Positions 40,508 to 56,021 of a stretch of DNA of 59,195 bases are shown here, in pieces. The translations under genes were made by a program, and so were the position numbers. The stretch spans positions 1 to 59,195 of IMG/VR virus record IMGVR_UViG_3300044825_002433. One strand, written 5' to 3'. How positions within the stretch are numbered: the stretch's first letter is position 1; the number at the start of each line of letters is the position of its first letter. The stretch comes from a virus (taxonomy: Duplodnaviria; Caudoviricetes). The notes beneath the pieces are model-generated. The model was not told the origin of the DNA and made no database searches. It saw only the letters and a program-made list of their open reading frames with translations.

Positions 40508-40512
40508 GGTCT

Positions 40513-40527
40513 TAGTCTGATTGACTA
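40513..40527. promoter_or_regulatory. Inverted repeat TAGTC-tgatt-GACTA, candidate recombinase binding site/operator
   Basis: Lies between the minus-strand TATACT (40530-40535) and the recombinase GTG (40507). Confidence 0.5.
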
Positions 40528-40695
40528 CGAGTATATCACTAACTACTGTCTGCCGCTTATTGTTTTTTAGGTTTTTGTATCTTTCTTAGTTTTACATTTT
40601 GTTTTATGTGTTTTCAGTTCTGGGTCTAGTGTTCCTATAAGCTTGGTTTTGATCTAAAGTGCTTTTAGAATAGTCTTACGCTGAAGGGTTTTTCG

Positions 40696-40929: not shown

Positions 40930-40932
40930 ATC

Positions 40933-42087
40933 ATGGGGTACAAGTTTAATCCCTTTACTGGGACTCTCGACGAAGTCAGCGCAGGCGGTGGGGGCGGCAC
41001 TCCTGGTGGTTCTACTACACAAGTTCAGTTCAACGACGGCGGCGCATTTGGCGGCGACGCTGACCTTACCTGGGATAAGACTACTAACGTCCTCACCAAC
41101 CGAGGGGACATCAACCTTGATGACGGCGGTAGTTTTACTACTACCGTTCAGTGCGTCACTCCAACCCAAAATCGCACTATCAGCTTCCCAGATGCAACTG
41201 GTACGGTCGCATTAGTTGCTGGGTCTAGTGGGCAACTTGTTTATAACAATGCTGGTGCTCAAGCTGGTGCTACTGGTAGCGTCGTTGATTCCAGCGGTAA
41301 TGTCACTATTGGTGGACTGACTACGCTTGCTGGTTCACCTAGTGCAAATAACACAAGCGGTGTACTAATTAACGGTACGTGGCGAACTGGAGCTAGTAGC
41401 AACAACCCTCAGCTACTTCTGAATCCGACTGGTACTACGCTTTCAACCACTTGGAGCCCGAGTGGTACAGGCATTGGTGTTAATGCACCGAGTACGTTTG
41501 GTGGGAACCTGCTGGATCTGCAGGTGAATGGGACGAGTCAGCTTAGTGCTAGCAACGCAGGCGCCTTAAGGTTTACAACTGGATCAAAAACCTCGACAAG
41601 GGTTCAGTTACTAACAGGTAGCGCAGCTGGAATATACGCAAGGGCAGGTACTCTTTTCTGCGCATCGGATGGCAACACGGAGGGCTTCCAGGCATCTTTA
41701 TCTGGGGTGATTATTCGTTCTGTCGCTGAATTCAGTTGGTCAGCTGGTGATCCAGATGTTTTCACTGGAGATGTTCGTCTGTTCCGCGATGCCGCAGGCA
41801 TTCTCGCCCAACGCAACGGCACCAACGCCCAAACCTTCCGCCTCTACAACACCTTCACCGACGCATCCAACTACGAGCGTGGCTTCCTCCGCTGGAGTAG
41901 CAACGTCTTTGAAGTTGGCCCCGAAGCTGCTGGTACGGGCACTGCTCGCCCCATGCGGATCACTGCAGCAACCCTGAAGCTGCCCAACTTGCCCACTTAC
42001 GCCGACAACGCTGCTGCTACCACTGGCGGCTTGGTTGCCGGTGACGTTTACAAAACCGCCACTGGCGAACTCCGTATCACCGTCTAA
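40933..42087 (+). CDS. Mosaic tail fibre protein
   Basis: KFNPFTG start, QVQFNDGG, RTISFPDATGT, RDAAGILAQRNG, YADNAAA..GG..GDVY modules. Confidence 0.75.
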   Translation: MGYKFNPFTGTLDEVSAGGGGGTPGGSTTQVQFNDGGAFGGDADLTWDKTTNVLTNRGDINLDDGGSFTTTVQCVTPTQNRTISFPDATGTVALVAGSSGQLVYNNAGAQAGATGSVVDSSGNVTIGGLTTLAGSPSANNTSGVLINGTWRTGASSNNPQLLLNPTGTTLSTTWSPSGTGIGVNAPSTFGGNLLDLQVNGTSQLSASNAGALRFTTGSKTSTRVQLLTGSAAGIYARAGTLFCASDGNTEGFQASLSGVIIRSVAEFSWSAGDPDVFTGDVRLFRDAAGILAQRNGTNAQTFRLYNTFTDASNYERGFLRWSSNVFEVGPEAAGTGTARPMRITAATLKLPNLPTYADNAAATTGGLVAGDVYKTATGELRITV

Positions 42088-42092
42088 CCATC

Positions 42093-42344
42093 ATGGCTTC
42101 TTTCACTATTGACATCGACGATTCTCTCGTCCCCGGCATCATCGCTATCGGCTATGCCGAATCTAAAACCCCAGAAGAGGTGGTTTCCTCTTACGCCGTG
42201 GCAGCAGCTACTAAGGCGTGTCAAGACCTCAAAGTAGGACCGTTTTATGTTGGTCCTATCCCTCCTGAGTTCAACGCTGACGGTACACCCTACGTAGCCC
42301 CAGTAGTCAACGACACTACTCAGCCAGTTGAGGAGGGCGTATGA
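42093..42344 (+). CDS. Small tail fibre-associated protein
   Basis: 83 aa, follows fibre gene. Confidence 0.55.
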   Translation: MASFTIDIDDSLVPGIIAIGYAESKTPEEVVSSYAVAAATKACQDLKVGPFYVGPIPPEFNADGTPYVAPVVNDTTQPVEEGV

Positions 42345-43132
42345 CGCTTGTCATCCAGAAGCCGACAGGGGCGAAGCTTAACCTGCGTAAAACCTGGCAG
42401 CCGATGGATGCTGACGCTGCTGCTTACATCACTGCTGTAGAAACGGCAGACGGTCAAGCACTGGAGGAGAAGGTCAAGATTGCCATTGATAACTTCGTCC
42501 TTGGTTGTAAGGCGGATGGTATCTGGTCTGCGATTAAAGCGAGTTGCATCCTCGCTGGTGCCCGGACGTTGGCTGGAGCGCTGGTTCCGTTGGTGGGAAC
42601 TGCGCCAACAAACGTTGGCAGTTTATTTGGGTCTGGAGACTACAACAGAAAAACCGGCCTAGCGGGAAACGGAAGTAATAAATATTTAGACGCAAATAGG
42701 GCTAGCAATGCAGACCCCCAGAATAATCATCATTTATCTGCTTTTGTAACCAGCCAAGGAGTTAATCTTATTATTGGCTCATTGGGCGGTTTGGACTATA
42801 CGGAGCTTTTGGTGGCGGGCGGAAATGCAAATGGACGCTCTAGAAATGCTGCTAACAATCAAGTTGCTTCGCAGTCAATTGCTTCATTTCATGGCGTTGC
42901 AAGATCAGCGAGCACCAATTACACAGCCCGAAAATATGGCTTAAACCAGATAGTGTCTGCAACAAGTCAAACACCAACAAGCACTTCTTTCAAAGTGTTT
43001 GCTCGTGGTGATGGCACTCTGCTAGGTACTCACCGAATTGCCTTCTACTCCATCGGTGAATCCCTAGATCTTGCCCTCCTCGACGCCCGAGTAACCGACC
43101 TTATCAACGCCTTCGGAGTGGCAATCCCATGA
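42341..43132 (+). CDS. Tail fibre/receptor-binding-like protein
   Basis: DADAAAYITAVE...GCKADGIW, lectin-like beta region. Confidence 0.6.
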   Translation: MTLVIQKPTGAKLNLRKTWQPMDADAAAYITAVETADGQALEEKVKIAIDNFVLGCKADGIWSAIKASCILAGARTLAGALVPLVGTAPTNVGSLFGSGDYNRKTGLAGNGSNKYLDANRASNADPQNNHHLSAFVTSQGVNLIIGSLGGLDYTELLVAGGNANGRSRNAANNQVASQSIASFHGVARSASTNYTARKYGLNQIVSATSQTPTSTSFKVFARGDGTLLGTHRIAFYSIGESLDLALLDARVTDLINAFGVAIP

Positions 43133-43178
43133 AACACCTACTAGACACTGCCACTACTAACCACGGGAGGATGATGCG

Positions 43179-44012
43179 ATGAGTTGGGTCGTTTCTGCCA
43201 AATCAAGCACCTGGGCCGAAGGCGGCGATCTGGTCTACACCATTGTTGTTGGCGGCACCACTTATCGCGTCCACGAATTTAAGACTGTTGGCACGTCATC
43301 GCTAAATGTGATGAAGGGTGGCAACGTTGAGTATCTCGTTGTTGCTGGTGGCGGCGGTGGTGGAGGTGGTATGCAAAACCAACGAGGCGGCGGCGGTGGT
43401 GCCGGCGGGCTTCTGTCTGGTTCAACTACCTTTACATCCGGATTGCTATCCATTGCTGTTGGATCTGGCGGCGCTGGTGGCACTGGAATTCCCACCGTGG
43501 GCCCTGGAGGCGACGGATCCTCCGGCGGTAATAGTTCCATTTCTGGATTAACCGCAGCGATTGGTGGCGGACGTGGTGGCGGGGCGGGGGGATCTATAGG
43601 ATCTACGCTTAATGGAGGCTCCGGGGGAGGTTGTGGAAGCCGAACCAATACGCCAGGGGTTGGTGGTGCAGCTACTGCTGGACAAGGAAATAAAGGAGGC
43701 GACAGATCAGTCGTAACAACTAGCAGTCCTATTTTTGGCCCTGGTGCTGGTGGCGGCGGTGCTGGTGGGGCGGGCCAAGACATCACAGCGGAAGGCGTAA
43801 TCGGAAGAGCTGGCGGGGCTGGTTTGTCTTTGTTAATAACAGGCACGTCTGTTACTTATGCAGCAGGGGGTAACGGCGGTTCAGATTCAACTACCGGGGC
43901 AACAGCAGGATCGAGCACTGGATCCGGTGGAGTTGGTGGAGGCTTCACCGCAAACGGCGGCTCCGGCGGCTCCGGTATCGTCATCGTGAGGTACGCGCTT
44001 ACTCTGCCCTGA
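43179..44012 (+). CDS. Glycine-rich tail fibre/adhesin protein
   Basis: YRVHEF, VEYLVVAGGGGGG, GGSGIVIVRY. Confidence 0.75.
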   Translation: MSWVVSAKSSTWAEGGDLVYTIVVGGTTYRVHEFKTVGTSSLNVMKGGNVEYLVVAGGGGGGGGMQNQRGGGGGAGGLLSGSTTFTSGLLSIAVGSGGAGGTGIPTVGPGGDGSSGGNSSISGLTAAIGGGRGGGAGGSIGSTLNGGSGGGCGSRTNTPGVGGAATAGQGNKGGDRSVVTTSSPIFGPGAGGGGAGGAGQDITAEGVIGRAGGAGLSLLITGTSVTYAAGGNGGSDSTTGATAGSSTGSGGVGGGFTANGGSGGSGIVIVRYALTLP

Positions 44013-44056
44013 GCCCTCGTAGTGTCCCCGGTTAATTACTCAGGCATAATTGTTGC

Positions 44057-44641
44057 ATGACAGCTCAGACCTCTGTTACTTACATAAGCGAGCTTGGACG
44101 CCGATCCCGTTCGCTGGAGTTTGCAGAATGGCAGCCTACCGCTTGCATGCCTTGCCCAATTATCAATAAATGTGCCCGCTGTAAAGAGTTTAAAAGCATT
44201 TTTGATTTTTACTTTCTTAAAACACAAGGCAGATCAGGCAGGCGGACAACAAATGGTAAACGCGTTGGCATTTATTGCAAACAATGCCAATCAAATCAAT
44301 ACAAGGAAAGCTCTACTGAATCTAAAATTTTTCATGCGTGCAAAAAGCGCGCCAAGGAAAAGGGGCTTGAGTTTACCCTAGAGCTTGCTGACATTAAGAT
44401 TCCTTCCCACTGCCCAATGCTTGGAATACCGCTGTACCCCACTAGCGGCCAAGCTGCTCATGCTAACTCCCCTAGTCTTGATCGCCTAGATCCGCGCAAA
44501 GGCTATACACCTGAAAATACGGCAATCATTTCTCATAGGGCAAACACCATCAAAAACAATGCCACTCCAGAAGAGCTGCGACTGATAGCGGACTATACAG
44601 AACGCGCGCTTGAAGAGCGGAGCAATGCAGAAGCTGCATAG
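44057..44641 (+). CDS. HNH-like endonuclease with N-terminal Zn finger
   Basis: CARC...CKQC; CPMLGIPL, SPSLDRLDPRKGY...IISHRANTIK. Confidence 0.8.
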   Translation: MTAQTSVTYISELGRRSRSLEFAEWQPTACMPCPIINKCARCKEFKSIFDFYFLKTQGRSGRRTTNGKRVGIYCKQCQSNQYKESSTESKIFHACKKRAKEKGLEFTLELADIKIPSHCPMLGIPLYPTSGQAAHANSPSLDRLDPRKGYTPENTAIISHRANTIKNNATPEELRLIADYTERALEERSNAEAA

Positions 44642-44751
44642 CTATTCCCCGACTAGGATGGGTGTGTTCCCGCTCTGCTTCGGCATCGGGCTGCAACATC
44701 CCCTATGCCTAGCTCCGGGACGCCGGATGACGCACAAACCTGGGGGTCACT

Positions 44752-44821
44752 GGGTTGAAAGCCAAAGGGAAAGGCACGCGGATAACGCACTCAGTAGCTG
44801 GTTCGAGTCCAGCTCAACCCC
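44752..44821 (+). pseudogene. tRNA-like element with disrupted anticodon arm
   Basis: Acceptor GGGTTGA/TCAACCC, D-stem GCC/GGC, T-arm GCTGG-TTCGAGT-CCAGC; no 5-bp anticodon stem. Confidence 0.6.
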
Positions 44822-44914
44822 TGAACGACACAGCGGGCGCCGCGTGGTATAAGGTGGTGGAGCAGCGCAGTCTCACCTGCCTGCCCCGTGACCAATCCGT
44901 TGGAGGACGGACTG

Positions 44915-45274
44915 ATGACCCAAGATTACAGGCATCCCGCTACCCCACCGCCGGAGCTGGTGCAGCAGTGGATCAACGAAGAGCCAGGCATCTTTGCTGA
45001 GCACATCGCCACCCGCGCCGCCCAGTGGGGCGCAGACCAGGAGCTGGAGGCGTGTTGTAAAGTTATTTGGAATAGTGCAGCTAACTTTTCAGCAACCGCT
45101 CATCTTGCAGCACAACGCAGGAGCGATAAACTCCGCGCCACCCGCCGCCCCAAGCCGTTGAGCTTGAAGGAGCAGGCGCTTGCTGTGCTGACGCAGTACA
45201 TGACTGGTGAGACAATCCTCACCAACGACTCTGTTGACACCATCCGCCGCGCCCTGGAGGCTCTCAATGACTGA
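44915..45274 (+). CDS. PPPELVQQW/AAQWGADQEL family protein, paralog 1
   Basis: GGAGG RBS before ATG 44915; conserved blocks shared with 45964 and 47219 ORFs. Confidence 0.7.
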   Translation: MTQDYRHPATPPPELVQQWINEEPGIFAEHIATRAAQWGADQELEACCKVIWNSAANFSATAHLAAQRRSDKLRATRRPKPLSLKEQALAVLTQYMTGETILTNDSVDTIRRALEALND

Positions 45275-45755
45275 TTACAAAGCAACGTCCGATCAATGGA
45301 ATCAAGTTCAGAAATGCGCCGATGTAGTTGGCAGCTCTGATTGCTCTGCAATTCTTGAACTCCGCGCCAGGATTGAAACACTAGAGAATGCTGCTCACAA
45401 GCATATCGTTGAAACCAATTCCAACATCGTGGCTTTGGCAAGCCGAGTCGAGTCGCTGGAAGCTGCTGAACGTCAAGCCTCAAAGGTTTACGAAATCAGC
45501 AAACCGCTAAAACTCACAGCAATACAACAGGAACAGTTGAACGCATTGCTACGACCTGGCTCCAGGCCATCTCCTAATTCCTCCCAAATTAGGAGTTCGC
45601 TGGTGGAGCGGGTAAGAAAAGCCATCTTTAACAATGGCGATGACGATGATTACAACGACGAAGCCCGTGCTGCAATCCGCGAGGTGGCCTTGTGGCTTGA
45701 CGAAAACACTGGTGGTGACGCCGCTTGGATGCTTAACCAGGAGGCCGAGCGATGA
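45267..45755 (+). CDS. Hypothetical protein
   Basis: ATGACTGA start overlapping upstream stop. Confidence 0.65.
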   Translation: MTDYKATSDQWNQVQKCADVVGSSDCSAILELRARIETLENAAHKHIVETNSNIVALASRVESLEAAERQASKVYEISKPLKLTAIQQEQLNALLRPGSRPSPNSSQIRSSLVERVRKAIFNNGDDDDYNDEARAAIREVALWLDENTGGDAAWMLNQEAER

Positions 45756-45967
45756 CTGAAATCACCCGCTACAAACTCGACGCTGCATTTGCACAGTTGC
45801 GCACGTTTGACCACCTTGCCAAGCCCGATGACTTCATCGAAGTGTCCCTATGGCACAACGGCGAAGGCTTCGATGCTCACCTGAGCACCCACGCCGAACA
45901 AAGCATCAAGCTGTCGTGGGGAGAGTTCAAGGCCCTAAAGAAACTTGTTAAGGAGCTGGATCAATGA
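45752..45967 (+). CDS. Hypothetical protein
   Basis: ATGA overlap, GGAGG RBS. Confidence 0.65.
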   Translation: MTEITRYKLDAAFAQLRTFDHLAKPDDFIEVSLWHNGEGFDAHLSTHAEQSIKLSWGEFKALKKLVKELDQ

Positions 45968-46326
45968 CTAACCCGATCACCCCACCGCCGGAGCTGGTAC
46001 AGCAGTGGGGGCACGATGCAAACCTGTTAGGCGTGCCACACAACGATGAAAACTGGGCGTACGAACAGCACATCGCCAACCGCGCCGCCCAATGGGGCGC
46101 CGACCAGGAGCTGGAGGCGATTCAAAAAGAGATCATTACGCAAGCCTGGTTTGCAGATCCAAGGCATCGCCTTGCTCAGCTCCGCGCCGCCCGACGCCCT
46201 AAGCCACCGAGCTTGAAGGAGCAGGCGTTAGCAGCGCTTAGAAGGTACGAAGCAGAAGAGTGGTGTGAAGAGATGACATTTGATAGCAGCATTATCCGCC
46301 GCGCACTGGAGGTGCTTCCCGAATGA
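45964..46326 (+). CDS. PPPELVQQW family protein, paralog 2
   Basis: Shared conserved blocks. Confidence 0.7.
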   Translation: MTNPITPPPELVQQWGHDANLLGVPHNDENWAYEQHIANRAAQWGADQELEAIQKEIITQAWFADPRHRLAQLRAARRPKPPSLKEQALAALRRYEAEEWCEEMTFDSSIIRRALEVLPE

Positions 46327-46502
46327 TCAACATCGACTCCAATCAAGGCCGCATCGGTGAACTGTGGTGGATCAACTCTGAGCAATCAAGGAAGATCTAC
46401 GGCGGCAACATCGTCCAAGGCTTACGGCAAACATTCGTCCTGTGGGGCACCTGCGGCTATGGCCGCGACATCAAAATTTCAATGGAGCCCATCAATGACT
46501 GA
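46323..46502 (+). CDS. Hypothetical protein (59 aa)
   Basis: MINIDSNQGRIGELWW...; coupled at both ends. Confidence 0.6.
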   Translation: MINIDSNQGRIGELWWINSEQSRKIYGGNIVQGLRQTFVLWGTCGYGRDIKISMEPIND

Positions 46503-46683
46503 TTTTTCTTTCTGGGCCGGCCCCGGTGTGATCTGCCCTAAGCATGGAACACACCCGCACACCATTGCAAGCAACATCAAAGGTCACGAAGGGCACTGGT
46601 GCATGATCTGCGCCCTTGAAGCACTTGGTGATCCACTGCCAACGATTTCACAAGAGGAGTATCTCAATGGCGTCAATGACTGA
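46495..46683 (+). CDS. Small Zn-binding protein
   Basis: CPKH ... CMIC. Confidence 0.6.
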   Translation: MTDFSFWAGPGVICPKHGTHPHTIASNIKGHEGHWCMICALEALGDPLPTISQEEYLNGVND

Positions 46684-46837
46684 CTTTCGAGAGCTGTGTG
46701 CCGAGCTGCTAGAAATTGCCGAGTTGTATTCCGACGGTGGCCCAGTTTACGAGCCCTTCGAGCAAATCTTAAATAAAGCCCGCGCCGTCCTTGCTCGCTG
46801 GGGCACATCCAATAACACTATTAACCAGGAGGACTAA
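46676..46837 (+). CDS. Hypothetical protein (MTDFRELCAEL type)
   Basis: ATGACTGA start. Confidence 0.6.
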   Translation: MTDFRELCAELLEIAELYSDGGPVYEPFEQILNKARAVLARWGTSNNTINQED

Positions 46838-46842
46838 TCACC

Positions 46843-47004
46843 ATGAAAAGCCTTGACGACTACACAGCACTTGGCGCCATCGTCCTAGTGCTTTTACTGA
46901 TGACTGCAACAGCCTGGTGGTGGTTCCCCCAAAAGTGGCAGGCATGTGAACGGCTTTATGACAACAAGCCAGCGCAGGTCTTCTGCCTGCTGGCATCGAA
47001 GTGA
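46843..47004 (+). CDS. Small membrane protein (53 aa)
   Basis: AGGAGG RBS; TM helix LGAIVLVLLLMTATAWWWF. Confidence 0.55.
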   Translation: MKSLDDYTALGAIVLVLLLMTATAWWWFPQKWQACERLYDNKPAQVFCLLASK

Positions 47005-47013
47005 GGAGAGCTA

Positions 47014-47226
47014 ATGACTAACCTCTCCCCCGCCGCACAAGCGGTGCTGGATGCGTTTCTCAAAGCGCCCATGGGGCAAAGCCATGTGGACGATGACCTA
47101 ATTGCCATTGCCGCCGCCCTGCGAGCTGTAGCTGAACACTGTAAATGTGACGATGGCGAAGGTTATTGGATCTACCGACCAAACATTCTTGCCATCGCCG
47201 CCGAGCTGGAGGGCAGCAATGACTGA
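47014..47226 (+). CDS. Hypothetical protein (LSPAAQAVLDA type)
   Basis: GAGGAG RBS, ATGACTAA start. Confidence 0.65.
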   Translation: MTNLSPAAQAVLDAFLKAPMGQSHVDDDLIAIAAALRAVAEHCKCDDGEGYWIYRPNILAIAAELEGSND

Positions 47227-47548
47227 ATTATCACCACAAGCCCCGGCGGTGCTGGTGCAGCAGTGGATCCAACAATCAACCACTACTGAATGCACCGCTT
47301 CTCAAGTGGCCACCCTTGCCGCCCAATGGGGCGCAGACGCTGAGCTGGAGGCGTGCTGTGAGTGGGTTGACTCATTCCAAAACAAATTTGTTCATGCCCA
47401 TGATCTTCGTCTTGTCCGCCGCCCCAAGCCGCCGAGCTTGAAGGAGCAGGCGCTAGAGGCGTTAGCTCACATTCTCAATAACAGCTCTACTCAACTTGGT
47501 GCAGACACCATCCGCCGCGCCCTTGAACAACTCCCTGACAACGAGTAG
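47219..47548 (+). CDS. PPPELVQQW family protein, paralog 3
   Basis: LVQQW, AAQWGADAELEAC, RRPKPPSLKEQAL, TIRRALE. Confidence 0.7.
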   Translation: MTELSPQAPAVLVQQWIQQSTTTECTASQVATLAAQWGADAELEACCEWVDSFQNKFVHAHDLRLVRRPKPPSLKEQALEALAHILNNSSTQLGADTIRRALEQLPDNE

Positions 47549-47561
47549 TCGCTTCCCCTAA

Positions 47562-47666
47562 ATGTTCTGCCCCTCTTACTGCTGCCAGGATTGCGGTGAA
47601 CAGATCGGGTGGCTCGGTCGGTTCTTTCAACTGATCCGCCTTCCATTGCATCGCTGCCAGGCATAG
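47562..47666 (+). CDS. Tiny Cys-rich peptide (34 aa)
   Basis: MFCPSYCCQDCGEQIGWLGRFF...; bounded by two candidate recombination sites. Confidence 0.4.
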   Translation: MFCPSYCCQDCGEQIGWLGRFFQLIRLPLHRCQA

Positions 47667-47761
47667 AAGACACCTCAACTAAAAGCCCCCCGCGTGGCAT
47701 CTAAGACGTAAACCCCCATACGGCCAAGCACGGTGTAGTATGGTTTGGTTTTTAATTCACC

Positions 47762-47989
47762 TTGAACATGCTAGACCCCTCTTTGGAATCCAGTCTTATG
47801 GAATCTTACATTACCAGACGAGAGGAGAGACTCAAAGAAGCAATTAACGACTATCTAGATGAGGATTTAAACGAGGAGTTCATAGAGGTTATTTTGAACC
47901 ATCTTAAGAATGAGTATGAGTTTCACTCTAGGAAATGCGGGATGTTGAAAAAGACCCTAGAACTTATTCAAAAAGGGAACATTCAGTAG
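47762..47989 (+). CDS. Hypothetical acidic protein
   Basis: 75 aa. Confidence 0.55.
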   Translation: MNMLDPSLESSLMESYITRREERLKEAINDYLDEDLNEEFIEVILNHLKNEYEFHSRKCGMLKKTLELIQKGNIQ

Positions 47990-48004
47990 AGGCACACAAG
48001 TGAC

Positions 48005-48169
48005 TTAAACTTGTGACTCCGCTATTTTCTTAGAGTTTGCTGCTTTTAACTGTTTTTCTTTTTCAGCAACTAAATGATGACTAGATACAAAACAGCAAGA
48101 AGTTACTTCTCCTTCTGTTAAACAGACTCGAATCGTTTCGGCTTCAAGGCATTCTACTGAGAGTGCCAT
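48005..48169 (-). CDS. Small hypothetical protein (54 aa)
   Basis: MALSVECLEAETIRVCLTE...SCCFVSSHHLV; TAAACT 24 nt upstream. Confidence 0.55.
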   Translation of the reverse strand: MALSVECLEAETIRVCLTEGEVTSCCFVSSHHLVAEKEKQLKAANSKKIAESQV

Positions 48170-48362
48170 TTTTTTTGTCTTTAATTCTGCGCTAGTTTAA
48201 AGCAGCAGCTGTATAAAAAGCTGCGATTATTACGGCCCCTAAGACACAAAATGTGACGGCGATAGCGTCGTCGGTCATAGCAAAAAAAAATTTCAGCGTG
48301 GGCACCCAAATAAAAAAGTAGCCAGCATGTTACTGCCGACTACTTCTCTGTTTTTAAATATT

Positions 48363-48674
48363 TCAGTTTGCCCAAGGCACACCGGCAGCCTTAGTTGGAT
48401 TTCTTTGTTCGTCAATTTGGGTTTGCAAGGCAGCCTCAATTTCAGCTACTTTTTCGGGACCGAAGTGCTCTTTAACCCACCCAACAACAATTTCTTCTGT
48501 CAGTTCGGCGTATGGAACTAAATTATCCGGGCGTTCGAACCCAAGACTGCCATACGCTCCCGAGGAGTAGGTGCCATCGTTAGCGGTTACAGTATAGTGT
48601 GCTGTGTATACGAATCCATCTGCAGTTTCTCTCTCGAGATTTACAATAGCCCAAACGAAAGTGGTGTCGGCCAT
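48363..48674 (-). CDS. Tail fibre-associated protein
   Basis: WAIVNLERE..DGFVYTAHY...GAYGS...GVPW. Confidence 0.7.
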   Translation of the reverse strand: MADTTFVWAIVNLERETADGFVYTAHYTVTANDGTYSSGAYGSLGFERPDNLVPYAELTEEIVVGWVKEHFGPEKVAEIEAALQTQIDEQRNPTKAAGVPWAN

Positions 48675-48749
48675 TAGAAAGTAAGCAATAGTTGAATTTT
48701 AAGCTTGATTTAGCTTGTTGAGTAGGCGGTTACCCACCTCCGTACGAAT

Positions 48750-48780
48750 AAAAAAAAGCCTGCCGGGAGCGTGGCAGGCT
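48750..48780 (-). terminator. Rho-independent terminator
   Basis: agcctgcc/ggcaggct stem preceded by A8 on + strand. Confidence 0.8.
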
Positions 48781-48803
48781 GAAGAGCGTATTAGAGAGTA
48801 GGG

Positions 48804-49286
48804 TTATTGGCTCTGGCTCGATTCAATGTAAGCGACAATCGCTTTTAGTTCATCAAGCGTTGCGTTGTTTTTGATCATGTTGGCTCGCATTGAGATAACG
48901 GCAATGTTGCCAGGCACATAACCTTTGCTGTTGTCGATACGATCCAAGCTGGGCGAGTTCTCTACTTGATCACGGTTTGACCTGCCAGCACCAACACGAG
49001 CAAACAATGGGATTCCCAGCACCGGGCAAGTTTCGGGAATTTCAATGTCATCTTTAGTGATGGTGCATTCCAATTCGGCAATACGAGCGCGGTTGCGAGC
49101 CGCGTAGACCATTTTCTGTCGCGGATCAAGCTCCATGTATTTTTGCATTTCACACTGGCGGCAACGGGAAATACGAGGCACGCCAAGAATGTCTCTCTTT
49201 GCTCGCTTGACCTTGTAAAAGTCAGTCTGCGGTTTGTGCTCCTTGCAGATATTGCACTGACGGAGCGCGGGGCAGGTCAAGGCCAT
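48804..49286 (-). CDS. HNH-like endonuclease, paralog of 44057..44641
   Basis: CNIC...CRQC; CPVLGIPL, SPSLDRIDNSKGY...VISMRANMIK; ATG 49286 overlaps the fibre stop. Confidence 0.8.
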   Translation of the reverse strand: MALTCPALRQCNICKEHKPQTDFYKVKRAKRDILGVPRISRCRQCEMQKYMELDPRQKMVYAARNRARIAELECTITKDDIEIPETCPVLGIPLFARVGAGRSNRDQVENSPSLDRIDNSKGYVPGNIAVISMRANMIKNNATLDELKAIVAYIESSQSQ

Positions 49287-50452
49287 GTGCTGATTGCGGT
49301 GCGCTTCCAAGTGTTCGTTGCAGTGCAAACGTAGATGTAGTTGGCATCCCAGCAGATCTCGCCAGCCACGCCAGTATCGGTAGCCGATGCCGGTGTTTTT
49401 GCAGTCGCAATTCTAATACGATTACCGTTCACCTGTAAGAGTGCGCCACCAGAGTCTGAAGCCGTGCCAACTAAAAGGCGTCGGCTGGAGTCAATGGTTA
49501 CGGCAGGAGAGCCTGCCGTTCCAATGCCGAGGGAATCATTTGCGTGATAATACTCAATGTAGCCGCGATAAGCCTCATTTCCCGATGTGCCATCTGCGAA
49601 ATAAATAGAGCCTACGCGATCCGCTACTCCTGTGGCACCTGATCTAATTGAGATGCCAGAATTTGCAGTTGTCGATCCGACGACAAGATTTGCTGCAGCC
49701 GAGCTATACGAGCCAGGGTCAGTAACGCCAATCCCTACGTTGCCTGTAGAAGTAATGTGCAGTTTATCGTCATTCGACGCTCCTGCACTAATTGCAAAAC
49801 TGGTGCCGTTATTACCACTAAGTCCTACTTTCCATTTAACTGCAGTTAAAGCGCTGCTATCGAAGCATACTGCAGGCGCAGCGTTGCCGTTGACAAGAAT
49901 CCCTTGGTAAGTTGTAGATGAGCTCACGTGAAGAGTTTGTCCAGGGCTACTAATCCCCAGACCTACTCTGTTATTGGTGGCATCGACGTAGAGCGTATTG
50001 CTATCGATGTTGACGTTGCCACTTGCGTCAATCAGTAGGCGCTGAACCCCACTAGACGAGATGGCTACGTTGTTTGCAGATGGCAGATAAACACCATTTG
50101 TCGGCACCGCGGAAGAACTCGGTATAAAACTTCCAGCAGTTAAGGCATCCGTTGTTTTATTAAAAGTTAAACCGGCATCACCTCCGAGATATCCGCCGTC
50201 GTTAAATTGAATCTGGGTGTTGGATCCAGCTGCGGCGATGCTTGCTGGCGGCAGTAAAGGAGCCACCACATTGGCCACTCCTTGCAAAGTTATCTTTTTA
50301 GGTTGAGCGTCTGCTTGTACTTCGTTTACATCTAATATCGCAAATGTACTCTGACCATCAGCAGCTCCGGCCTCCGCTTGCAGATCGTGCGTGGGCTGGA
50401 GACTCCGCCCAAATTGCCGCGCTTCGTCAAGACTACGCTTAGTCACAATCAA
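49277..50452 (-). CDS. Mosaic tail fibre protein
   Basis: QIQFNDGG, VAISS, RVGLG, GNVGIG, RLLVGT repeats; GEICWDANYIYVC tip. Confidence 0.8.
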   Translation of the reverse strand: MIVTKRSLDEARQFGRSLQPTHDLQAEAGAADGQSTFAILDVNEVQADAQPKKITLQGVANVVAPLLPPASIAAAGSNTQIQFNDGGYLGGDAGLTFNKTTDALTAGSFIPSSSAVPTNGVYLPSANNVAISSSGVQRLLIDASGNVNIDSNTLYVDATNNRVGLGISSPGQTLHVSSSTTYQGILVNGNAAPAVCFDSSALTAVKWKVGLSGNNGTSFAISAGASNDDKLHITSTGNVGIGVTDPGSYSSAAANLVVGSTTANSGISIRSGATGVADRVGSIYFADGTSGNEAYRGYIEYYHANDSLGIGTAGSPAVTIDSSRRLLVGTASDSGGALLQVNGNRIRIATAKTPASATDTGVAGEICWDANYIYVCTATNTWKRTAISTWP

Positions 50453-50556
50453 TCCGAGGAAGTATTTTTATTATAAAGTCTTTTTCTGTTGGTAAATCTA
50501 GAGCACAGCGCAACACTATCTTGCGTACTAAACTGAACCGTTAGTGGGATTTTTTA

Positions 50557-51267
50557 GTGTCTCGTAAAAACTGGGTCAAGGCCCTTGAATTTAACCGTTT
50601 AGTCTCTTCTTTAACGTATTTACAAAAAACTACGCGTGTTACGGATAACGATGCTTTTTTGGTTCTTGATTTAGAGGAAAAAGACGCAGACGCTCAGCCT
50701 AAACAAATCACCCTTAGTGGAATTCAGAATTCATTAAATCAAAGTGTCGGATTTACGACGGCTGTTAGCGGTATCGCCACCGCTGTAGTTAACACTATCG
50801 GTAGTGGTGTAACCCCGTACTACGGAAGCTTTTACGATACAACTATACAAACTAATCCGAGTGGGAACGGTTATTACAACCTCATGCGTTTAAATTCCAC
50901 AGCGGAGTCGCGTGGAGTCAGTGTGGTGTCTGGCGGCTTACTTCAAGTAGCTAATTCCGGTGTTTATAACGTCCAGTTTTCCGCTCAGATCGACAAAACA
51001 GATGCCGGCACCGATGACGCTGAGATTTGGATCGCTAAAAACGGTCAGAACGTCCCTTGGTCGGCGACACAGCTGACCTTAGATAAAAACAATGCTCGTG
51101 TCGTCGCTGCTTGGAATTGGGTTTTGACTATGGATACTGAAGAGTACGCAGAAATTCGGTGGCACGCCTTGGATACTAGTATTCGTCTGTACGCCACTGG
51201 CGTCGCCACTTCTCCTGACCGCCCCGGCGTACCTTCCGTTATTGTTACCGTAAATCGTGTAGCTTAG
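50557..51267 (+). CDS. Fibre/collar protein with C1q/BclA-like C-domain
   Basis: N-terminus shared with the 49277 gene (ADAQPK.ITL.G); YGSFYDT, GVYNVQFSAQ. Confidence 0.6.
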   Translation: MSRKNWVKALEFNRLVSSLTYLQKTTRVTDNDAFLVLDLEEKDADAQPKQITLSGIQNSLNQSVGFTTAVSGIATAVVNTIGSGVTPYYGSFYDTTIQTNPSGNGYYNLMRLNSTAESRGVSVVSGGLLQVANSGVYNVQFSAQIDKTDAGTDDAEIWIAKNGQNVPWSATQLTLDKNNARVVAAWNWVLTMDTEEYAEIRWHALDTSIRLYATGVATSPDRPGVPSVIVTVNRVA

Positions 51268-51309
51268 GTTTGTAATGGATATAAAATAGATCTTGTTTGG
51301 GCGCTTTCG

Positions 51310-51666
51310 TTGGCTGGAAAACACTGCGTCCAAGAATTGTACAAAGCAGATTCCTATCTTTTAAACGATGAGGCTTTCGTACGGGAAGCCCTCGTGGGGG
51401 CCGCTTCCGTTGCAAACGCAACCCTCTTGGACGTTAGTACACACCTTTTCGAACCTCAAGGAGTTACGGGGTTTGTGTTACTGGCTGAGAGTCACATCTC
51501 TATCCACACTTGGCCCGAATTAGGGTATGCCGCTGTGGATGTGTATACCTGCGGAACATCCACCGTGCCTGAGAAAGCTTGTGAGTATTTATATGAGCGG
51601 TTTAATGCTAAGAAACAACAAATACAAACTATACTTCGACCTGTTCCAAAGTTTACTTGTGTTTAA
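51310..51666 (+). CDS. speD: S-adenosylmethionine decarboxylase proenzyme
   Basis: FEPQGVT, LAESHISIHTWPE (E-S self-cleavage), DVYTCG. Confidence 0.93.
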   Translation: MAGKHCVQELYKADSYLLNDEAFVREALVGAASVANATLLDVSTHLFEPQGVTGFVLLAESHISIHTWPELGYAAVDVYTCGTSTVPEKACEYLYERFNAKKQQIQTILRPVPKFTCV

Positions 51667-51717
51667 AGATTCCCGTTTTTGCCCTAGTTAGAATATTTTC
51701 AAGCCGCTCCACTTCTT

Positions 51718-52104
51718 GTGGTCGAGGGTGATCTCCTTTTTGAGCTCCATTGTTTACAGAAAGGTACAGCCCGTAAGCGATTCAGAAAAGATATTCTCGA
51801 GGCGTGGGGACATCGATGCGCCTATTGCCATCGAGAGCGGGCTACTACATTAGATCATGTAGTCCCTAAGTCCCGCGGAGGTCCGACAACTAAAGCTAAT
51901 CTTGTTGCTTGTTGCGGTGATTGCAACATCAGCAAAAACCATGAAAATGTTCTCGCTTGGTGGAGAGCCCAGACGTTTTGGACGTTAGAGCGAGAGCGCG
52001 GGTTGTTTCTTTGGTTATCTAAATACCATCCTGCGACTGTCAGCAGAGCCCAGGAGTTAAACAAATTAATGAGTTATAAGGGTCTGCCCCCAGCCGCAGC
52101 TTGA
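51718..52104 (+). CDS. HNH endonuclease
   Basis: CAYC, TLDHVVPKSRGG, NLVACC..CN. Confidence 0.85.
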   Translation: MVEGDLLFELHCLQKGTARKRFRKDILEAWGHRCAYCHRERATTLDHVVPKSRGGPTTKANLVACCGDCNISKNHENVLAWWRAQTFWTLERERGLFLWLSKYHPATVSRAQELNKLMSYKGLPPAAA

Positions 52105-52124
52105 GGACAGACCCCATCCAGGAA

Positions 52125-52301
52125 TCACTTCTTGGCAAGTTTGCTTACGATGCCAGCCAGGATTTCAATAATTCGGTAGTACTTAGCGAGGGCTGCATCA
52201 TCTTTTGGCGTCGGGGTCATGTTTACGATCAACAAAGCCACCGCGTGGATGGCGATGAGGATCTCGATGATGTTTTTGGCGTTGTCCAAAAGGTTGTCCA
52301 T
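52125..52301 (-). CDS. Putative holin-like membrane protein (58 aa)
   Basis: IIEILIAIHAVALLIVNMTPTPKDD; TAAACT 21 nt upstream; near endolysin. Confidence 0.65.
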   Translation of the reverse strand: MDNLLDNAKNIIEILIAIHAVALLIVNMTPTPKDDAALAKYYRIIEILAGIVSKLAKK

Positions 52302-52329
52302 GGTTCGATTAACTCTATCTCTAGTTTAC

Positions 52330-52644
52330 CTATTTTGTTTCGAAGTTACCGCGGATGCGCATTTCGCCTCCTAATAAGTCTTGAGCTTTGGATCCGTCGG
52401 GCGGCAGTTCTGAATATATAGTTTTAGGCTTTTCTTGTTTGTCCCACTCTTTGGTTATTCTCTCAACGTCTTTATCGACGGAGATAAGGGTGGATTCGAT
52501 TTTCCACAGAACCCAATCGTGTTTACAGTAATGTAAAATTAATTTTACTATTTTGTATTTTCTTATACTTTTGTAGTTTTCTGCTATAGCTTTAACTACT
52601 TCGTAAAGCAGAGCTAACCATATGTTGTATTTATTGTTTTTCAT
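52330..52644 (-). CDS. Hypothetical protein
   Basis: 104 aa. Confidence 0.55.
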   Translation of the reverse strand: MKNNKYNIWLALLYEVVKAIAENYKSIRKYKIVKLILHYCKHDWVLWKIESTLISVDKDVERITKEWDKQEKPKTIYSELPPDGSKAQDLLGGEMRIRGNFETK

Positions 52645-52906
52645 CTGCTCTGCTCATAATTAGACGATCTAGTTTATCGTTTATACTTCGTAACCAAATT
52701 CGAATGTCTCCTAATTCTGTATTAAGATCTGATTTTAAGACGTACTTTATCGGTAATTCTTCAATCTTATCTTCCACAATTTCTACTCTCTTTTTTATAG
52801 ATTCAAAACGGGAGTTTATTACAGACTGCCGCTGTTGGTGCGACCAGGTGAACAGCCCTAGCACCGTGGCTAAACCAGCAATTAGAGCTTCCAAACCCAC
52901 GACCAA
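52631..52906 (-). CDS. Membrane-anchored coiled-coil protein
   Basis: N-terminal TM, YVLKSD...INDKLDRLI. Confidence 0.6.
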   Translation of the reverse strand: MVVGLEALIAGLATVLGLFTWSHQQRQSVINSRFESIKKRVEIVEDKIEELPIKYVLKSDLNTELGDIRIWLRSINDKLDRLIMSRADEKQ

Positions 52907-52992
52907 CTTTTTACCTAGTTAAATTTTACTGTTTCTCGCGCTGTTAAAGGATAAATTTATCGTTTAAACTAAAGCTACTTGGACCGCTAGCT

Positions 52993-53430
52993 GTGAGCCA
53001 ATTCACCAAAAATTTAGAGTTAAACAACATTTTGGCTAGTGGAGTTTCTACCACTAATCAGCGCTCCACGTCGACTCATTTTGATCAGCGTCGTCAGCTG
53101 AATGCCAGCGGAGTAGTGGTTAATACCGCTCAGTCTCGCACTTACGCCGCTGATGGTCTTTACGGCATTGCTGACTATTATCCATTAGCCGTTAATGGTA
53201 CTGGTATTCTTCAGGTTGATATTCGCGATCACAATAATTGCGGTGATGTAATCATTCTTAACGCCTCTGGAGTTGAGGTCATGACTGCATCGCCTTCTAA
53301 ATTAAGCAGCCGTAAGACCACCATTACGCAACAGCGCATCTCCGCCAGCGGCACGCACTATGCGTACATCCAGGTTAAAGGTCGTTCCGGTTGCGAGTAT
53401 CGTGTGGGCATCGATTTGCAAGTTCGGTGA
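52993..53430 (+). CDS. Hypothetical beta-rich protein
   Basis: 145 aa, TAAACT 22 nt upstream. Confidence 0.55.
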   Translation: MSQFTKNLELNNILASGVSTTNQRSTSTHFDQRRQLNASGVVVNTAQSRTYAADGLYGIADYYPLAVNGTGILQVDIRDHNNCGDVIILNASGVEVMTASPSKLSSRKTTITQQRISASGTHYAYIQVKGRSGCEYRVGIDLQVR

Positions 53431-54653
53431 AACTTTCGGAAAACGGTCTCAACCTTCTTAAACGGTTTGAAGGCTGTCGGTTACGCGCGTATCGAGATAT
53501 TGCAAATGTTCTTACGATCGGATACGGGCACACTGGTCCTGATGTAGTCGAGAACCTTTTAATTACATCCGAGGAGGCTGAGAATCTCCTTCGCTCGGAT
53601 GTTCAGAGATTTGAGTTTGGTGTAAGTAATTCTTTAAAAGTTAAAGTAAATCAAAACGAGTTTGATGCTTTAGTTAGCTTTTCGTTCAATATTGGATTAG
53701 GGGCTTTCAGTTCGTCCACTCTTTTGAAGCTTCTTAACGACAACACAGATCGAACCATCGTCGCATCTGAATTCTTAAAGTGGTGTAAAGCAGATGGTGT
53801 TGTTGTAGAAGGTTTAAAAAGACGCCGGGAAGCCGAGAAAGGGTTATTCTTAGCCAAAGTCTTACACCCTCTCTTGACGACCTCCATTCTGGCTAAGAAG
53901 GACACGTGGCTGAAGCGAGAGCCCAAGCAATCGTCAGAGCTACCTGCTGAGCGGAAACTGTTTGTTCCTAAGGGGTCTGCCCATGAGTGGGCTGAGATCA
54001 CCATGCTTTCTGGGGAGCCCCATTATCGGGTAACTCTGAAAGCTCAACCCTCACAGCCTTGGTGGATTTGGCCCGCCGATTTCAAAATAATTAACGATAT
54101 AGAATCCACTGAGTCTCCCGCTGTTCCTCGTGTTTTAAACGTTCCTTATTATTCTCAGCGGGATAACTATGTGAACGCGCTGTCTACTTGCTACAGCAGT
54201 GCCAATGCGATGTTAGTTAAATATTTAAAACCCGATGCCATAGCGTCTGACGACCAGTATTTAAGAACTGTTTATAAATACGGAGAATCTGAGGAAGCTT
54301 CCGCCCAGCTGAGCGCCCTTCGAGAATACGGAATCCCTGCCACGTTCCAACAAAATGGCTCGTGGAGCTCCTTAGATGCGCAACTTGCTGCTGGTATCCC
54401 TGTTCCTATCGGTATTCTCCACAAAGGTCCTGTGTCGTCTCCTACTGGAAACGGGCATTGGATCGTTGTGATTGGTAAGTCGCAAGACGGTAAAGGATAT
54501 GTAGTGAATGATCCCTTCGGTGATCTAGACCTAGTCTCCGGCACTTACATTAGTACAAACGGCAAAGGGCTTACCTACTCCAAAAAGAACCTAGGACCTC
54601 GCTGGCTGGTTGAAGGCCCCAACAGCGGCTGGTACATAAAGGCATCTAAATGA
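53427..54653 (+). CDS. Endolysin: GH24 lysozyme + C39-like cysteine peptidase
   Basis: LKRFEG, TIGYGH, GLKRRREAE; VPYYSQRDN, CYSS, GHWIVVIG, VNDP. Confidence 0.88.
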   Translation: MKLSENGLNLLKRFEGCRLRAYRDIANVLTIGYGHTGPDVVENLLITSEEAENLLRSDVQRFEFGVSNSLKVKVNQNEFDALVSFSFNIGLGAFSSSTLLKLLNDNTDRTIVASEFLKWCKADGVVVEGLKRRREAEKGLFLAKVLHPLLTTSILAKKDTWLKREPKQSSELPAERKLFVPKGSAHEWAEITMLSGEPHYRVTLKAQPSQPWWIWPADFKIINDIESTESPAVPRVLNVPYYSQRDNYVNALSTCYSSANAMLVKYLKPDAIASDDQYLRTVYKYGESEEASAQLSALREYGIPATFQQNGSWSSLDAQLAAGIPVPIGILHKGPVSSPTGNGHWIVVIGKSQDGKGYVVNDPFGDLDLVSGTYISTNGKGLTYSKKNLGPRWLVEGPNSGWYIKASK

Positions 54654-54871
54654 AGAACACTTCCATCAACCTGCCCCCTGCAGCGTGGCTCAATATTGCG
54701 CGTTGCGCTGACGAAAGAGCCAATTCGAAAACCTTTAATTGGGATGAAGATGACAGTCCTCTCGGAGATTTGATAACCCGAGAAATGGCTCGCATGTTAG
54801 CCTACCGCTGCGCTTTGATTCAAAATCTCTTACAAGATGTCCGCTGTGAAAAGTGTCAAGGATTTCAGTGA
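54650..54871 (+). CDS. Hypothetical protein
   Basis: ATGA overlap. Confidence 0.45.
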   Translation: MKNTSINLPPAAWLNIARCADERANSKTFNWDEDDSPLGDLITREMARMLAYRCALIQNLLQDVRCEKCQGFQ

Positions 54872-55127
54872 AGCTGAGCTTCAAGCAGTCCTTCTTAATT
54901 GGGACGTCAAAGCTGAACAGGACAAGGCAGATTTTATAGAGGCTCTTTATCAGTTTTATTTGCCTTCTAACCACTCATATACTGGGCTGTATCAGCAGTT
55001 TGCTCAAGATCTCTTATTATCTTTTAAGTCTATGATTTTGTCTGGTGAATTTAAACTAAAACCCGCGTCAGCAGAAGATGATTCCACCAAGATCGATAAC
55101 TCTAATGCTCCTTTATGCGACATCTAG
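54837..55127 (+). CDS. Hypothetical protein
   Basis: 96 aa. Confidence 0.5.
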   Translation: MSAVKSVKDFSEAELQAVLLNWDVKAEQDKADFIEALYQFYLPSNHSYTGLYQQFAQDLLLSFKSMILSGEFKLKPASAEDDSTKIDNSNAPLCDI

Positions 55128-55174
55128 ATCTTTTCTTTTATCTTTTCTAGACTGGGATAAGTTCTTAATTCGTC

Positions 55175-55396
55175 ATGTCTCGAGATTACGACAGAGAATA
55201 TAAGACGTACCACGGTAAACCAGAACAGATAAAAAGGCGTGCTGCTCGTAACAAAGCGCGCGCTTATATGGTCAAAAACGGTAAAACTCATAAGGGAGAT
55301 CCGCGCGAAGTGGATCACAAAAACAAGAATCCCTTAGATAATTCACCGGATAATATTAGAATGAGGGACAAGAGTGCAAACAGGCGGGATCAGTAG
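55175..55396 (+). CDS. Small HNH-like protein
   Basis: RDYDREY...EVDHKNKNPLDNSPDNIR...NR. Confidence 0.7.
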   Translation: MSRDYDREYKTYHGKPEQIKRRAARNKARAYMVKNGKTHKGDPREVDHKNKNPLDNSPDNIRMRDKSANRRDQ

Positions 55397-55890
55397 TGGC
55401 CGTTATTCCAGGCGCAGCCAGCCCCAACAACCCTGATGCTGCCGGGCAGCCCCGGTTTATGCCGGGTTTTATGGGTTACAACCGTGAGCCCGAGCTGTCT
55501 CTCCGGCGAACGTTCACTCTCGATGGATCCAACCGGATTGCTTCGCAACTCGAACACAACCGTGGGACTTACTCCCGCCCTCCGGTTCAGCCCGTCGAGT
55601 ACGCTCCCGGGAACATCAAAACCAGTCATTATGTGACTGGTGCTGTCGGCTATAACCAGCGGTCTATTGCCGCTCCTGACAGCGCTGACGACATGAGTCA
55701 GGCCCAATACATGATGTCGTTAGCTCAGGATAAACCTGAACAGCGCCTTCGAATGCAGGAAGAACTGCTGCTCAACGCTAAGCAGAATTTCTTGAATACT
55801 CGCGTAATCCCTACGGATTATGCAGCCATGACGCACAACACCGTCAACAACCTTATGTCCTTAGCTAAAGCTAAGAAGGAGGCCAAATGA
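55396..55890 (+). CDS. Hypothetical protein
   Basis: 164 aa. Confidence 0.55.
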   Translation: MAVIPGAASPNNPDAAGQPRFMPGFMGYNREPELSLRRTFTLDGSNRIASQLEHNRGTYSRPPVQPVEYAPGNIKTSHYVTGAVGYNQRSIAAPDSADDMSQAQYMMSLAQDKPEQRLRMQEELLLNAKQNFLNTRVIPTDYAAMTHNTVNNLMSLAKAKKEAK

Positions 55891-56021
55891 TGCGCGATTC
55901 GGATTTCCCCATCCGCATGGCGGGCGCTCGTCTTAATTTCGATTCCACCCGGTTAGCTGGCATTACACCTTCAGAGGTGACTCGGCGTTTACGTTATCAG
56001 GCGGCAAATCCTGCCACTTGA
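55887..56021 (+). CDS. Small peptide (44 aa)
   Basis: AAGGAGG RBS, ATGA overlap; MMRDSDFPIRMAGARL... Confidence 0.55.
   Translation: MMRDSDFPIRMAGARLNFDSTRLAGITPSEVTRRLRYQAANPAT

Follow-up and report, generated by a model that had tools for sequence, protein, structure and literature searches.

Exchange edges in the mosaic tail-fibre gene of an uncultured phage lie at conserved motifs and probably do not involve the phage integrase

The window analyzed here, meaning the whole stretch from position 1 to 59,195 of IMG/VR record IMGVR_UViG_3300044825_002433, is a linear virus record 59,195 bases long, obtained from a metagenome and estimated to be 73% complete. Genes for a terminase, a portal-like protein, lysins, and a primase were found in it, and it also carries several fibre-like genes, three HNH/endonuclease-like genes, and an S-adenosylmethionine (SAM) decarboxylase. 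Our subject is a tail-fibre gene on its minus strand, in which a sequence-only reading had marked four short strings related to TAG-N9-CTA as dyads and proposed that they are in-phase recombination sites that permit swaps of fibre segments; the recombinase in question is a tyrosine recombinase encoded ~9 kb away. We confirmed that the four strings lie where they had been placed on the coding strand of open reading frame (ORF) 49277–50452, that TAG starts at codon position 2 in each, and that their 7-bp cores are all unlike. The strings at 41213 and 42304 likewise are TAG-N9-CTA strings in the codon-position-2 phase. We found that the fibre gene is a mosaic with abrupt edges, and we consider it probable that the four strings are ordinary codons of a modular, all-beta fibre whose mosaic is exchanged by general recombination at conserved motifs without the integrase.

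The coordinates of the features discussed are collected in Table 1. The fibre ORF matched phrog_9942 ("tail fiber protein") with an E value of 9.4e-35, and in tblastn it aligned, piecewise in every case, with fibres annotated in phages of Synechococcus, Prochlorococcus, and Pelagibacter; none of the 114 records found reached 80% query cover. A Pfam search returned no family for the protein, and a PDB sequence search gave nothing usable. An Rfam search gave no match in the fibre gene and two sub-threshold matches at 48750–48804. At the level of the window, megablast of positions 36000–56000 against isolate phages gave no match, and no tRNA gene was found in the window, so there was no tRNA-type attP clue. 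Our model of the fibre monomer was of low confidence (predicted local distance difference test [pLDDT] 59, predicted template modelling score [pTM] 0.34). It served for strand positions alone, placing predicted beta-strands over all four sites (E129–133, E162–165, E239–241, and E326–328). The true start may be the GTG at 50446 in place of the TTG of the ORF, judging by its alignment with Met1 of the divergently transcribed neighbour. The ~60 amino acids (aa) that the two products have in common at their N termini are possibly a virion-attachment domain, and they are reflected in a 44-nucleotide (nt) inverted repeat of 75% identity, I1 (50289–50332 and 50668–50711).

Table 1. Features of the fibre locus and related genes in the window
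Feature	Position	Strand	Description
Site 1	50053–50067	-	codes NNVAISS; sole site with complementary TAG/CTA ends
Site 2	49951–49965	-	codes RVGLGIS
Site 3	49723–49737	-	codes NVGIGVT
Site 4	49459–49474	-	codes LLVGTAS; upstream edge of conserved 3' block
Tail-fibre gene	49277–50452	-	391 aa; start TTG at 50452; ORF and translation
Collar island (aa ~116–173)	49935–50107	-	72–86% nt identity with 15 otherwise unalignable fibres
C-terminal cassette (aa 327–391, ...GEICWDANYIYVCTATNTWKR...)	49280–49474	-	attached in other phages to fibre bodies that differ greatly
Endonuclease-like gene	48804–49328	-	174 aa; phrog_3322, phrog_1035; 52-nt overlap with fibre 3' end
DUF7936 gene	48363–48674	-	PF25590, E 1.3e-36
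Tyrosine recombinase (phage integrase)	39662–40507	-	PF00589, E 9.2e-19; phrog_1
Divergently transcribed gene	50557–51267	+	236 aa; N-terminal ~60 aa common with fibre, 36% identity (BLASTP E 2e-9)

To compare the fibre with its relatives, we fetched 80 of the 412 relatives detected in IMG/VR, which yielded 67 distinct fibre ORFs that fall into 41 clusters at 80% nt identity. When the window was compared with these 80 loci, similar DNA was limited to two islands. The first, ~685 nt long at ~85% nt identity, extends from 48790–48809 to 49474–49483 and consists of the last 65 fibre codons and the entire overlapping endonuclease-like gene. Among 69 high-scoring segment pairs (HSPs) over the 3' end of the fibre gene, its fibre-internal edge fell at 49474 in 21, at 49477 in four, at 49480 in three, at 49483 in four, and at 49471 or 49473 in two, such that similarity begins within 49471–49483, at site 4, in 34 of the 69 loci. 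Other edges lie further in, including 49450/49451 (nine) and 49396 (15). In pairwise alignments with L003, L031, and L034, identity rises abruptly from ~40% to 85–95% at ...TTAGTTGGCACG, where the jump coincides with the first base of site 4 (TTA, 49474). Upstream of the jump a common peptide, IDSS.RL, is written with different codons. Since the codons of IDSSRRL in the window and of IDSSGRL in the cassette family differ and the stretch of identity begins inside the motif, at TTAGTTGGCAC, the alignment fits a crossover inside shared DNA.

The 65-aa C-terminal cassette is found on otherwise different proteins. It is retained at 62–90% aa identity in eight loci and at 55% in a ninth, all with unrelated N-terminal parts. 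To resolve where it is joined, we replaced a histogram of all HSP edges, which had mostly re-found the motif islands, with analyses of long HSPs. The 3' cassette is common to 132 cluster pairs at a nt identity of at least 85%, and its upstream edges are spread over 35 distinct positions, so there is no fixed crossover. The edges nevertheless fall largely (100 of 132) inside a 60-nt band over the DNA coding for ERARIDSSGRLLVGT, with modes at -153 (16 pairs) and -138 (12 pairs) relative to the Cys codon of CWD; the position singled out by the sequence-only reading, -120, accounts for three. Such scatter resembles exchange, homologous or homeologous, over a conserved stretch of DNA, or selection for joints at a structural boundary, and is unlike crossover in the core of a recombinase site.

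The second island is the collar, which reaches 74% aa identity over aa 104–176 in two of the relatives. Its distal edge falls at 49942–49949, 2–9 nt past site 2, in 10 of 15 HSPs, and its proximal edges fall at 50107, 50076, 50041, and 50031/50032, none of them in site 1. The interval 49497–49926 is free of IMG/VR HSPs, hence these loci give no junction evidence for site 3, which is a 20-nt similarity island only (short pieces at 49727–49746 in Logan contigs). Sites 2 and 3 are short similarity islands at which junctions are not demonstrated. Fibre aa 73–106 (window ~50135–50236) carry the motif ...NTQIQFNDGG...LTFNKTT..., a collar element widespread among fibres that recurs at 65–82% identity in many metagenome contigs, some of them >300 kb. 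When metagenomes were scanned with the first 130 aa of the fibre, no close relative was found; the best match was 40% over aa 2–97, and the remaining matches covered the widespread motif at aa ~70–129 only.

To provide evidence from independent samples, we aligned Logan contigs of four runs to positions 48700–50600. Two contigs from X5 and X6, which belong to one study (562 and 576 nt), match 50057–50267/50281 with eight differences and then run into 255 unlike letters, and a second variant from these samples diverges at 50060. Both divergence points lie inside site 1. At the other end of the locus, contigs of 1326 and 1839 nt match 48700–48802 without substitutions and then diverge directly before the stop codon of the endonuclease-like gene (48804–48806). 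These observations are consistent with replacement, in close relatives, of a whole segment comprising the endonuclease-like gene and fibre aa 133–391, although the two ends were not seen on one molecule. A contig from X4, which belongs to another study, spans 49970–50272 over 304 nt with no differences, so the arrangement of the window at site 1 is not an assembly artefact, and for a second X4 contig of 75 nt the match ends at 49474. At sites 2 and 3, the Logan contigs gave matches of only 20–34 nt. Two candidate rearrangement joints had sides of 20 nt, below our trust limit, and look like motif cross-matches (assembled contigs only). We took all of these short matches to be cross-matches of motif DNA, and neither the two joints nor stretches lacking contig cover count as evidence here. 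In the X5 and X6 freshwater samples, the flanks 48700–48802 and 50057–50600 are present at high depth with contigs diverging inward, and inner pieces identical to the window are present at a low depth of ~2–3x. This suggests that fibre alleles co-exist on one backbone in these samples.

Upon analysis of the peptides coded at the four sites, we found short conserved motifs between variable segments, with the consensus ...SxGxVGIGTTSP...ERARIDSSGRLLVGT.... The sequence-only reading had each string open a new shaft module. Sites 2 and 3 occupy homologous places in a single repeat motif, with the core (N/R)-V-G-(I/L)-G written GTA GGN. Site 4 is an L-L-V-G-T variant of that core in which TTA GTT supplies the TAG, one codon further downstream than in sites 2 and 3. 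A separate conserved motif, N-N-V-A-I-S, makes up site 1 within the collar. In full, the repeat core reads (I-D-S-S-G)-[NR]-[VL]-[GL]-[IV]-G-T, and complete units in relatives take forms such as ...GADQVAISTNG..., ...ER.RIDSSGNVGIGTTSP...L.V, and ...ERARIDSSGRLLVGTSS.SGGALLQV. TAG appears at codon position 2 because these motifs use GTA for Val, or TTA for Leu, and the next codon begins with G.

The check proposed alongside the strings, a comparison of codon usage at the motifs, showed biased codon choice and so did not refute the idea, but the bias is neither tied to the recombinase nor specific to TAG. In 63 instances of VG[ILV]G from the 41 clusters, Val is GTA in 31 (background 0.20) and GTG in 20 (0.16), compared with GTA in 29 of 231 Val-Gly dipeptides outside the motif. 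Similarly, 22 of 33 instances of LLVG have TTA for their second Leu, against a background of 0.18. The other motif codons are biased as well, with the next Gly being GGG in 34/63 (0.09), followed by ATT in 38/50 (0.49) and AGT in 17/27 (0.16), and the codon consensus is GGC AAC GTA GGG ATT GGG ACT AGT AGC CCT. Since every motif codon is biased, the bias is not about TAG. As a control, the non-repeated C-terminal module is equally biased (ATC 23/25, AAG 32/34, ACA 26/36). Identical residues share the same codon at frequencies of 0.45–0.53 in the motif, 0.50–0.55 in the C-terminal module, and 0.38–0.48 elsewhere, where 0.29–0.34 is expected. Because the C-terminal module shows the same codon conservation, we read the bias at the motifs as probable shared DNA ancestry of modules exchanged within one gene pool and not as selection for TAG. 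In distant isolates (two cyanomyoviruses, S-CBP4, and two pelagiphages), the peptide motif is kept with mixed codons, the seven V-type instances being GTT three times, GTA twice, and GTC and GTG once each. Motif conservation at the nucleotide level beyond the need of the peptide is thus confined to closer relatives.

The strings themselves do not behave as a distinct sequence feature. Complementary 3-bp ends (TAG/CTA) are present at site 1 only, and with 4-bp arms the complementarity of sites 1–4 is 3/4, 2/4, 2/4, and 2/4 positions, with no gain from longer arms. Single-strand folding gave -1.1, -1.4, -1.9, and 0 kcal/mol, respectively. The strings lack the symmetry of dyads. All sites but site 1 require one mismatch to TAG-N9-CTA, and neither form of the pattern is enriched in the window: exact copies number 16 against 11.7 expected (16 was reached in 14 of 100 shuffles), and copies with one mismatch number 246 against 243.4 expected (reached in 47 of 100). 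A stricter pattern, TAGT-N7-ACTA, occurs three times in the window (40513–40527, 42304–42318, and 22360–22374) against 0.66 expected, a count reached in four of 100 shuffles. One of these copies lies 6 nt from the start of the integrase ORF, and none lies inside the fibre gene studied here.

The common phase of the strings had been presented as meaningful. The fibre gene, however, holds 19 off-frame TAGs, of which eight start at codon position 2 and the other 11 at position 3, and a perfect TAG-N9-CTA at 49989–50003 that had been passed over sits in the other phase. Because an in-frame TAG is impossible, each TAG in this gene has roughly even odds of either phase. Shuffling synonymous codons of the fibre gene gave 8.0 and 8.8 TAGs in the two phases compared with the observed eight and 11, so nothing selects for TAG here. 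Six of the 19 TAGs, that of the perfect string at 49989–50003 among them, have a far end that is at least 2/3 complementary, where 3.0 are expected (P = 0.06). Selection for hidden stops or TAG was also considered in the 41 relatives and rejected, with 321 TAGs against 305 +/- 12 in the codon-position-2 phase and, at codon position 3, 359 against 396.

It is highly improbable that the four strings are in-phase core sites of the tyrosine recombinase at which modules are swapped or inverted in the manner of a shufflon, and several defining features of such a system already contradict it. In its favour, a tyrosine recombinase is encoded in the window, exchange edges coincide with two of the four strings, and the stricter pattern is in excess, with one copy abutting the integrase start and one at 42304. 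That pattern, however, is absent from this fibre gene. Partner sites of tyrosine recombinases need identical overlap regions, and the four cores are unlike. We found none of the marks of core sites, namely inverted-repeat arms round a 6–8-bp overlap, a common core, enrichment, co-occurrence with the recombinase, and one fixed crossover position; the edges occupy 35 positions, and the perfect string at 49989–50003 is out of phase with the others. No inverted or direct repeat pair of at least 14 nt links any of the four sites to another. Shufflon-like repeats and repeats like those of diversity-generating retroelements were considered over 38000–53000 and rejected, as only matches of chance size (14–17 nt) touch the four sites or the 3' part of the fibre gene; a reverse transcriptase was not searched for. 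A PF00589 gene is present in the records of one of the 41 relatives, many of which are fragments in which absence is weak evidence, and in none of the three records that are at least 90% complete. In seven records at least 70% complete without a PF00589 match, the motif Val codon is GTR in eight of nine instances, so the codon bias is independent of the recombinase. What stands of the proposed in-frame swaps is that segments are exchanged in frame and that two edges lie at sites 1 and 4. We infer that the integrase has no part in the exchange.

The 3' end of the fibre gene overlaps an endonuclease-like gene that is polymorphic among relatives. Among the 69 loci that share the fibre C terminus, it is present in 22 at the same position and 84–94% aa identity, divergent or partial in seven, and absent from 38 (scored where there was room of at least 600 nt), with no room in the remaining two. 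Its place is the same throughout, after the end of the fibre and before the DUF7936 gene or region, and in 19 loci similarity to the window ends 12–16 nt from its stop codon (48790–48796). Pfam, NCBIfam, and PDB sequence searches gave no match for its product, and its family of 1978 proteins at E<=1e-5 is without names or Pfam domains. The structure model (pLDDT 87.5) weakly resembled the HNH restriction enzymes Hpy99I and PacI, both beta-beta-alpha-Me nucleases, as the best PDB folds, with E values of ~2–3e-3 and template modelling (TM) scores of 0.26–0.41. Four Cys, D129, R130, Y137, N141, and N150 are invariant. A canonical HNH motif has its usual His as D-H; here the invariant stretch is D-R, and the His appears to be absent. 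Two further genes of this kind lie in the window, a paralogue at 44057–44641 on the plus strand (43% aa identity), downstream of a glycine-rich fibre-like gene at 43179–44012, and a canonical HNH gene (PF01844) at 51718–52104 on the plus strand, which recurs near fibres in relatives at 30–49% identity.

The DUF7936 gene is the usual partner of fibres with this C-terminal cassette and lies downstream in 57 of the 69 loci. In about half of the 38 endonuclease-less loci it starts ~15–110 nt past the point where the fibre match stops; in the others it is further downstream or was not found in the locus. In loci with the endonuclease-like gene, DUF7936 comes after that gene. From their conserved pairing, the cassette and DUF7936 could be a fibre tip and an assembly or adhesin partner.

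Free-standing homing endonuclease genes include the T4 seg/mob genes. The presence and absence of the endonuclease-like gene resemble the pattern of such a gene, which could help to move the cassette. The I-HmuI-like HNH genes of Skunavirus are an example of free-standing homing endonucleases in phages (PMC12724721). As with such genes, a small nuclease-like gene stands between conserved neighbours, is polymorphic, and sits with adjacent coding DNA in a sharply bounded block of high identity. Unlike those genes, ours owes its nuclease assignment to PHROG names and weak folds and has no Pfam-recognised HNH motif.

Three further accounts of the mosaic have to be set beside the one we favour. It is rather improbable, in our view, that the endonuclease-like gene is itself the agent, cutting alleles that lack it such that repair co-converts the C-terminal fibre DNA or the whole distal fibre. 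This would explain a sharply bounded block of ~685 nt and why identity in the cassette is so high at the DNA level, and it agrees with the polymorphism at one site (22 present, seven divergent or partial, and 38 absent of 69), with similarity that stops at 48790–48796 on one side and at 49474–49483 on the other, with the divergence of X5 and X6 contigs at 48802 and 50057, with a model closest to Hpy99I and PacI, with the invariant Cys and other residues listed above, and with homing by free-standing HNH genes, which is established in phages (PMC12724721). Against it stand the missing sequence matches, the weak folds, the apparent absence of the HNH His, and the endonuclease-less loci L003, L008, and L037, which hold the cassette at the same ~85% nt identity, so that conservation of the cassette is independent of the endonuclease-like gene. 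Less probable again is a combined account in which islands of motif DNA would act as recombination linkers and the endonuclease would supply the breaks, making the distal fibre and the endonuclease-like gene a homing-driven host-range cassette of freshwater phages, joined to the constant N-terminal anchor at NNVAIS. The alternative that comes nearest to ours, though it is still unlikely, invokes structure only: breakpoints would arise anywhere through illegitimate or homologous recombination, only chimeras joined at strand-motif boundaries would fold, and the DNA similarity of the motifs would reflect peptide conservation and recent ancestry. The predicted beta-strands at all four sites (in the low-confidence model), the equally strong codon conservation of the non-repeat C-terminal control, and the retention of peptide but not codons in distant relatives speak for it. 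It is inseparable from our preferred explanation with present data. The differing codons of IDSSRRL and IDSSGRL upstream, with identity starting inside the motif, fit a crossover in shared DNA.

In the explanation we prefer, exchange by general recombination, the conserved peptide motifs form islands of nucleotide similarity among otherwise unalignable fibres. The fibre is a four-part mosaic, with a private anchor at the N terminus, then a shared collar, then a private middle, and finally a widely shared C-terminal cassette, which in this phage makes up one conserved block with the overlapping endonuclease-like gene. Segments would be exchanged by general (homologous or homeologous) recombination begun in motif DNA, or, alternatively, recombination products would survive only if joined at the structural boundaries of the motifs. 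We infer from the junctions in or next to motifs (49474–49483, 50057/50060, and 100 of 132 edges in the band) that exchange is seeded in, or filtered to, these stretches, noting that the extension of alignments favours such a result.

Several points weigh against this explanation. If selection kept only those chimeras that can fold, joined at domain boundaries, an equal pattern would result without any role for DNA homology. The 21 loci with an edge at 49474 represent one event in the lineage of the window, and neither cluster pairs nor loci are independent. HSP ends are approximate, and because alignments extend through conserved motifs, part of the gathering of edges there comes from the alignment procedure. 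The 50057/50060 edge comes from Logan contigs of two runs in a single study, and among the listed contigs from independent samples the 49474 junction is crossed only by a 34-nt match with five differences. Lastly, four of the six Val-Gly pairs in the fibre use GTA (P = 0.016 against the usage of the window and 0.11 against that of the gene itself), a mild and post hoc excess that is not fully explained, and the codons favoured at the motif, GTA, GGG, and AGT, are rare, whereas the C-terminal control favours C-ending codons.

Apart from the fibre locus, positions 44930–47540 on the plus strand consist of three tandem paralogous units of ~1.05–1.25 kb each (repeat families D1–D3 and D6), which include two phrog_32006 genes at 45964–46326 and 47147–47548.

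Recombinase sites within the coding DNA of an adhesin or fibre permit in-frame exchange of C-terminal segments in the shufflon of IncI plasmids (Rci/sfx) and in the Gin and Cin systems of phages Mu and P1. These have repeated inverted sites with a common core, alternative promoterless C-terminal segments beside the gene, and an adjacent dedicated recombinase. The window differs in that its cores are unlike, no repeats link the sites, no alternative segments were seen, and PF00589 is found in one of 41 relatives' records. A closer parallel is provided by the long-tail-fibre and adhesin genes g37/g38 of T-even phages, in which specificity is swapped through recombination between conserved motifs (Tetart et al. 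1996, 1998, cited in Trojet et al. 2011, PMC3157838). As described in the passages cited, variable segments of the T-even fibre and adhesin genes are parted by short, highly conserved, glycine-containing motifs with junctions in or near them, as they are in the window. In the same passages, host-range mosaicism arises by general recombination with no dedicated recombinase, the step that we propose by analogy for the window fibre. Unlike the T-even proteins, the window fibre belongs to an unrelated family, a cyanophage/pelagiphage-type fibre without a Pfam match, and its most conserved and most widely shared part is the C-terminal 65 aa.

In-phase recombinase sites in a fibre gene, if true, would be a new kind of programmed host-range switch, which the evidence does not support. 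The window fibre is instead an environmental example of a known principle, that fibres evolve by exchange of modules at conserved motifs. What is useful here is the nucleotide resolution of the exchange edges in this fibre gene and the pairing of a C-terminal cassette with a DUF7936 gene that is common to many uncultured phages; the endonuclease-like insertion is a candidate driver of the spread of the cassette. Together, these features help to annotate the fibres of uncultured freshwater and marine phages and to choose junctions for chimeric fibres in laboratory work on phages and their hosts.

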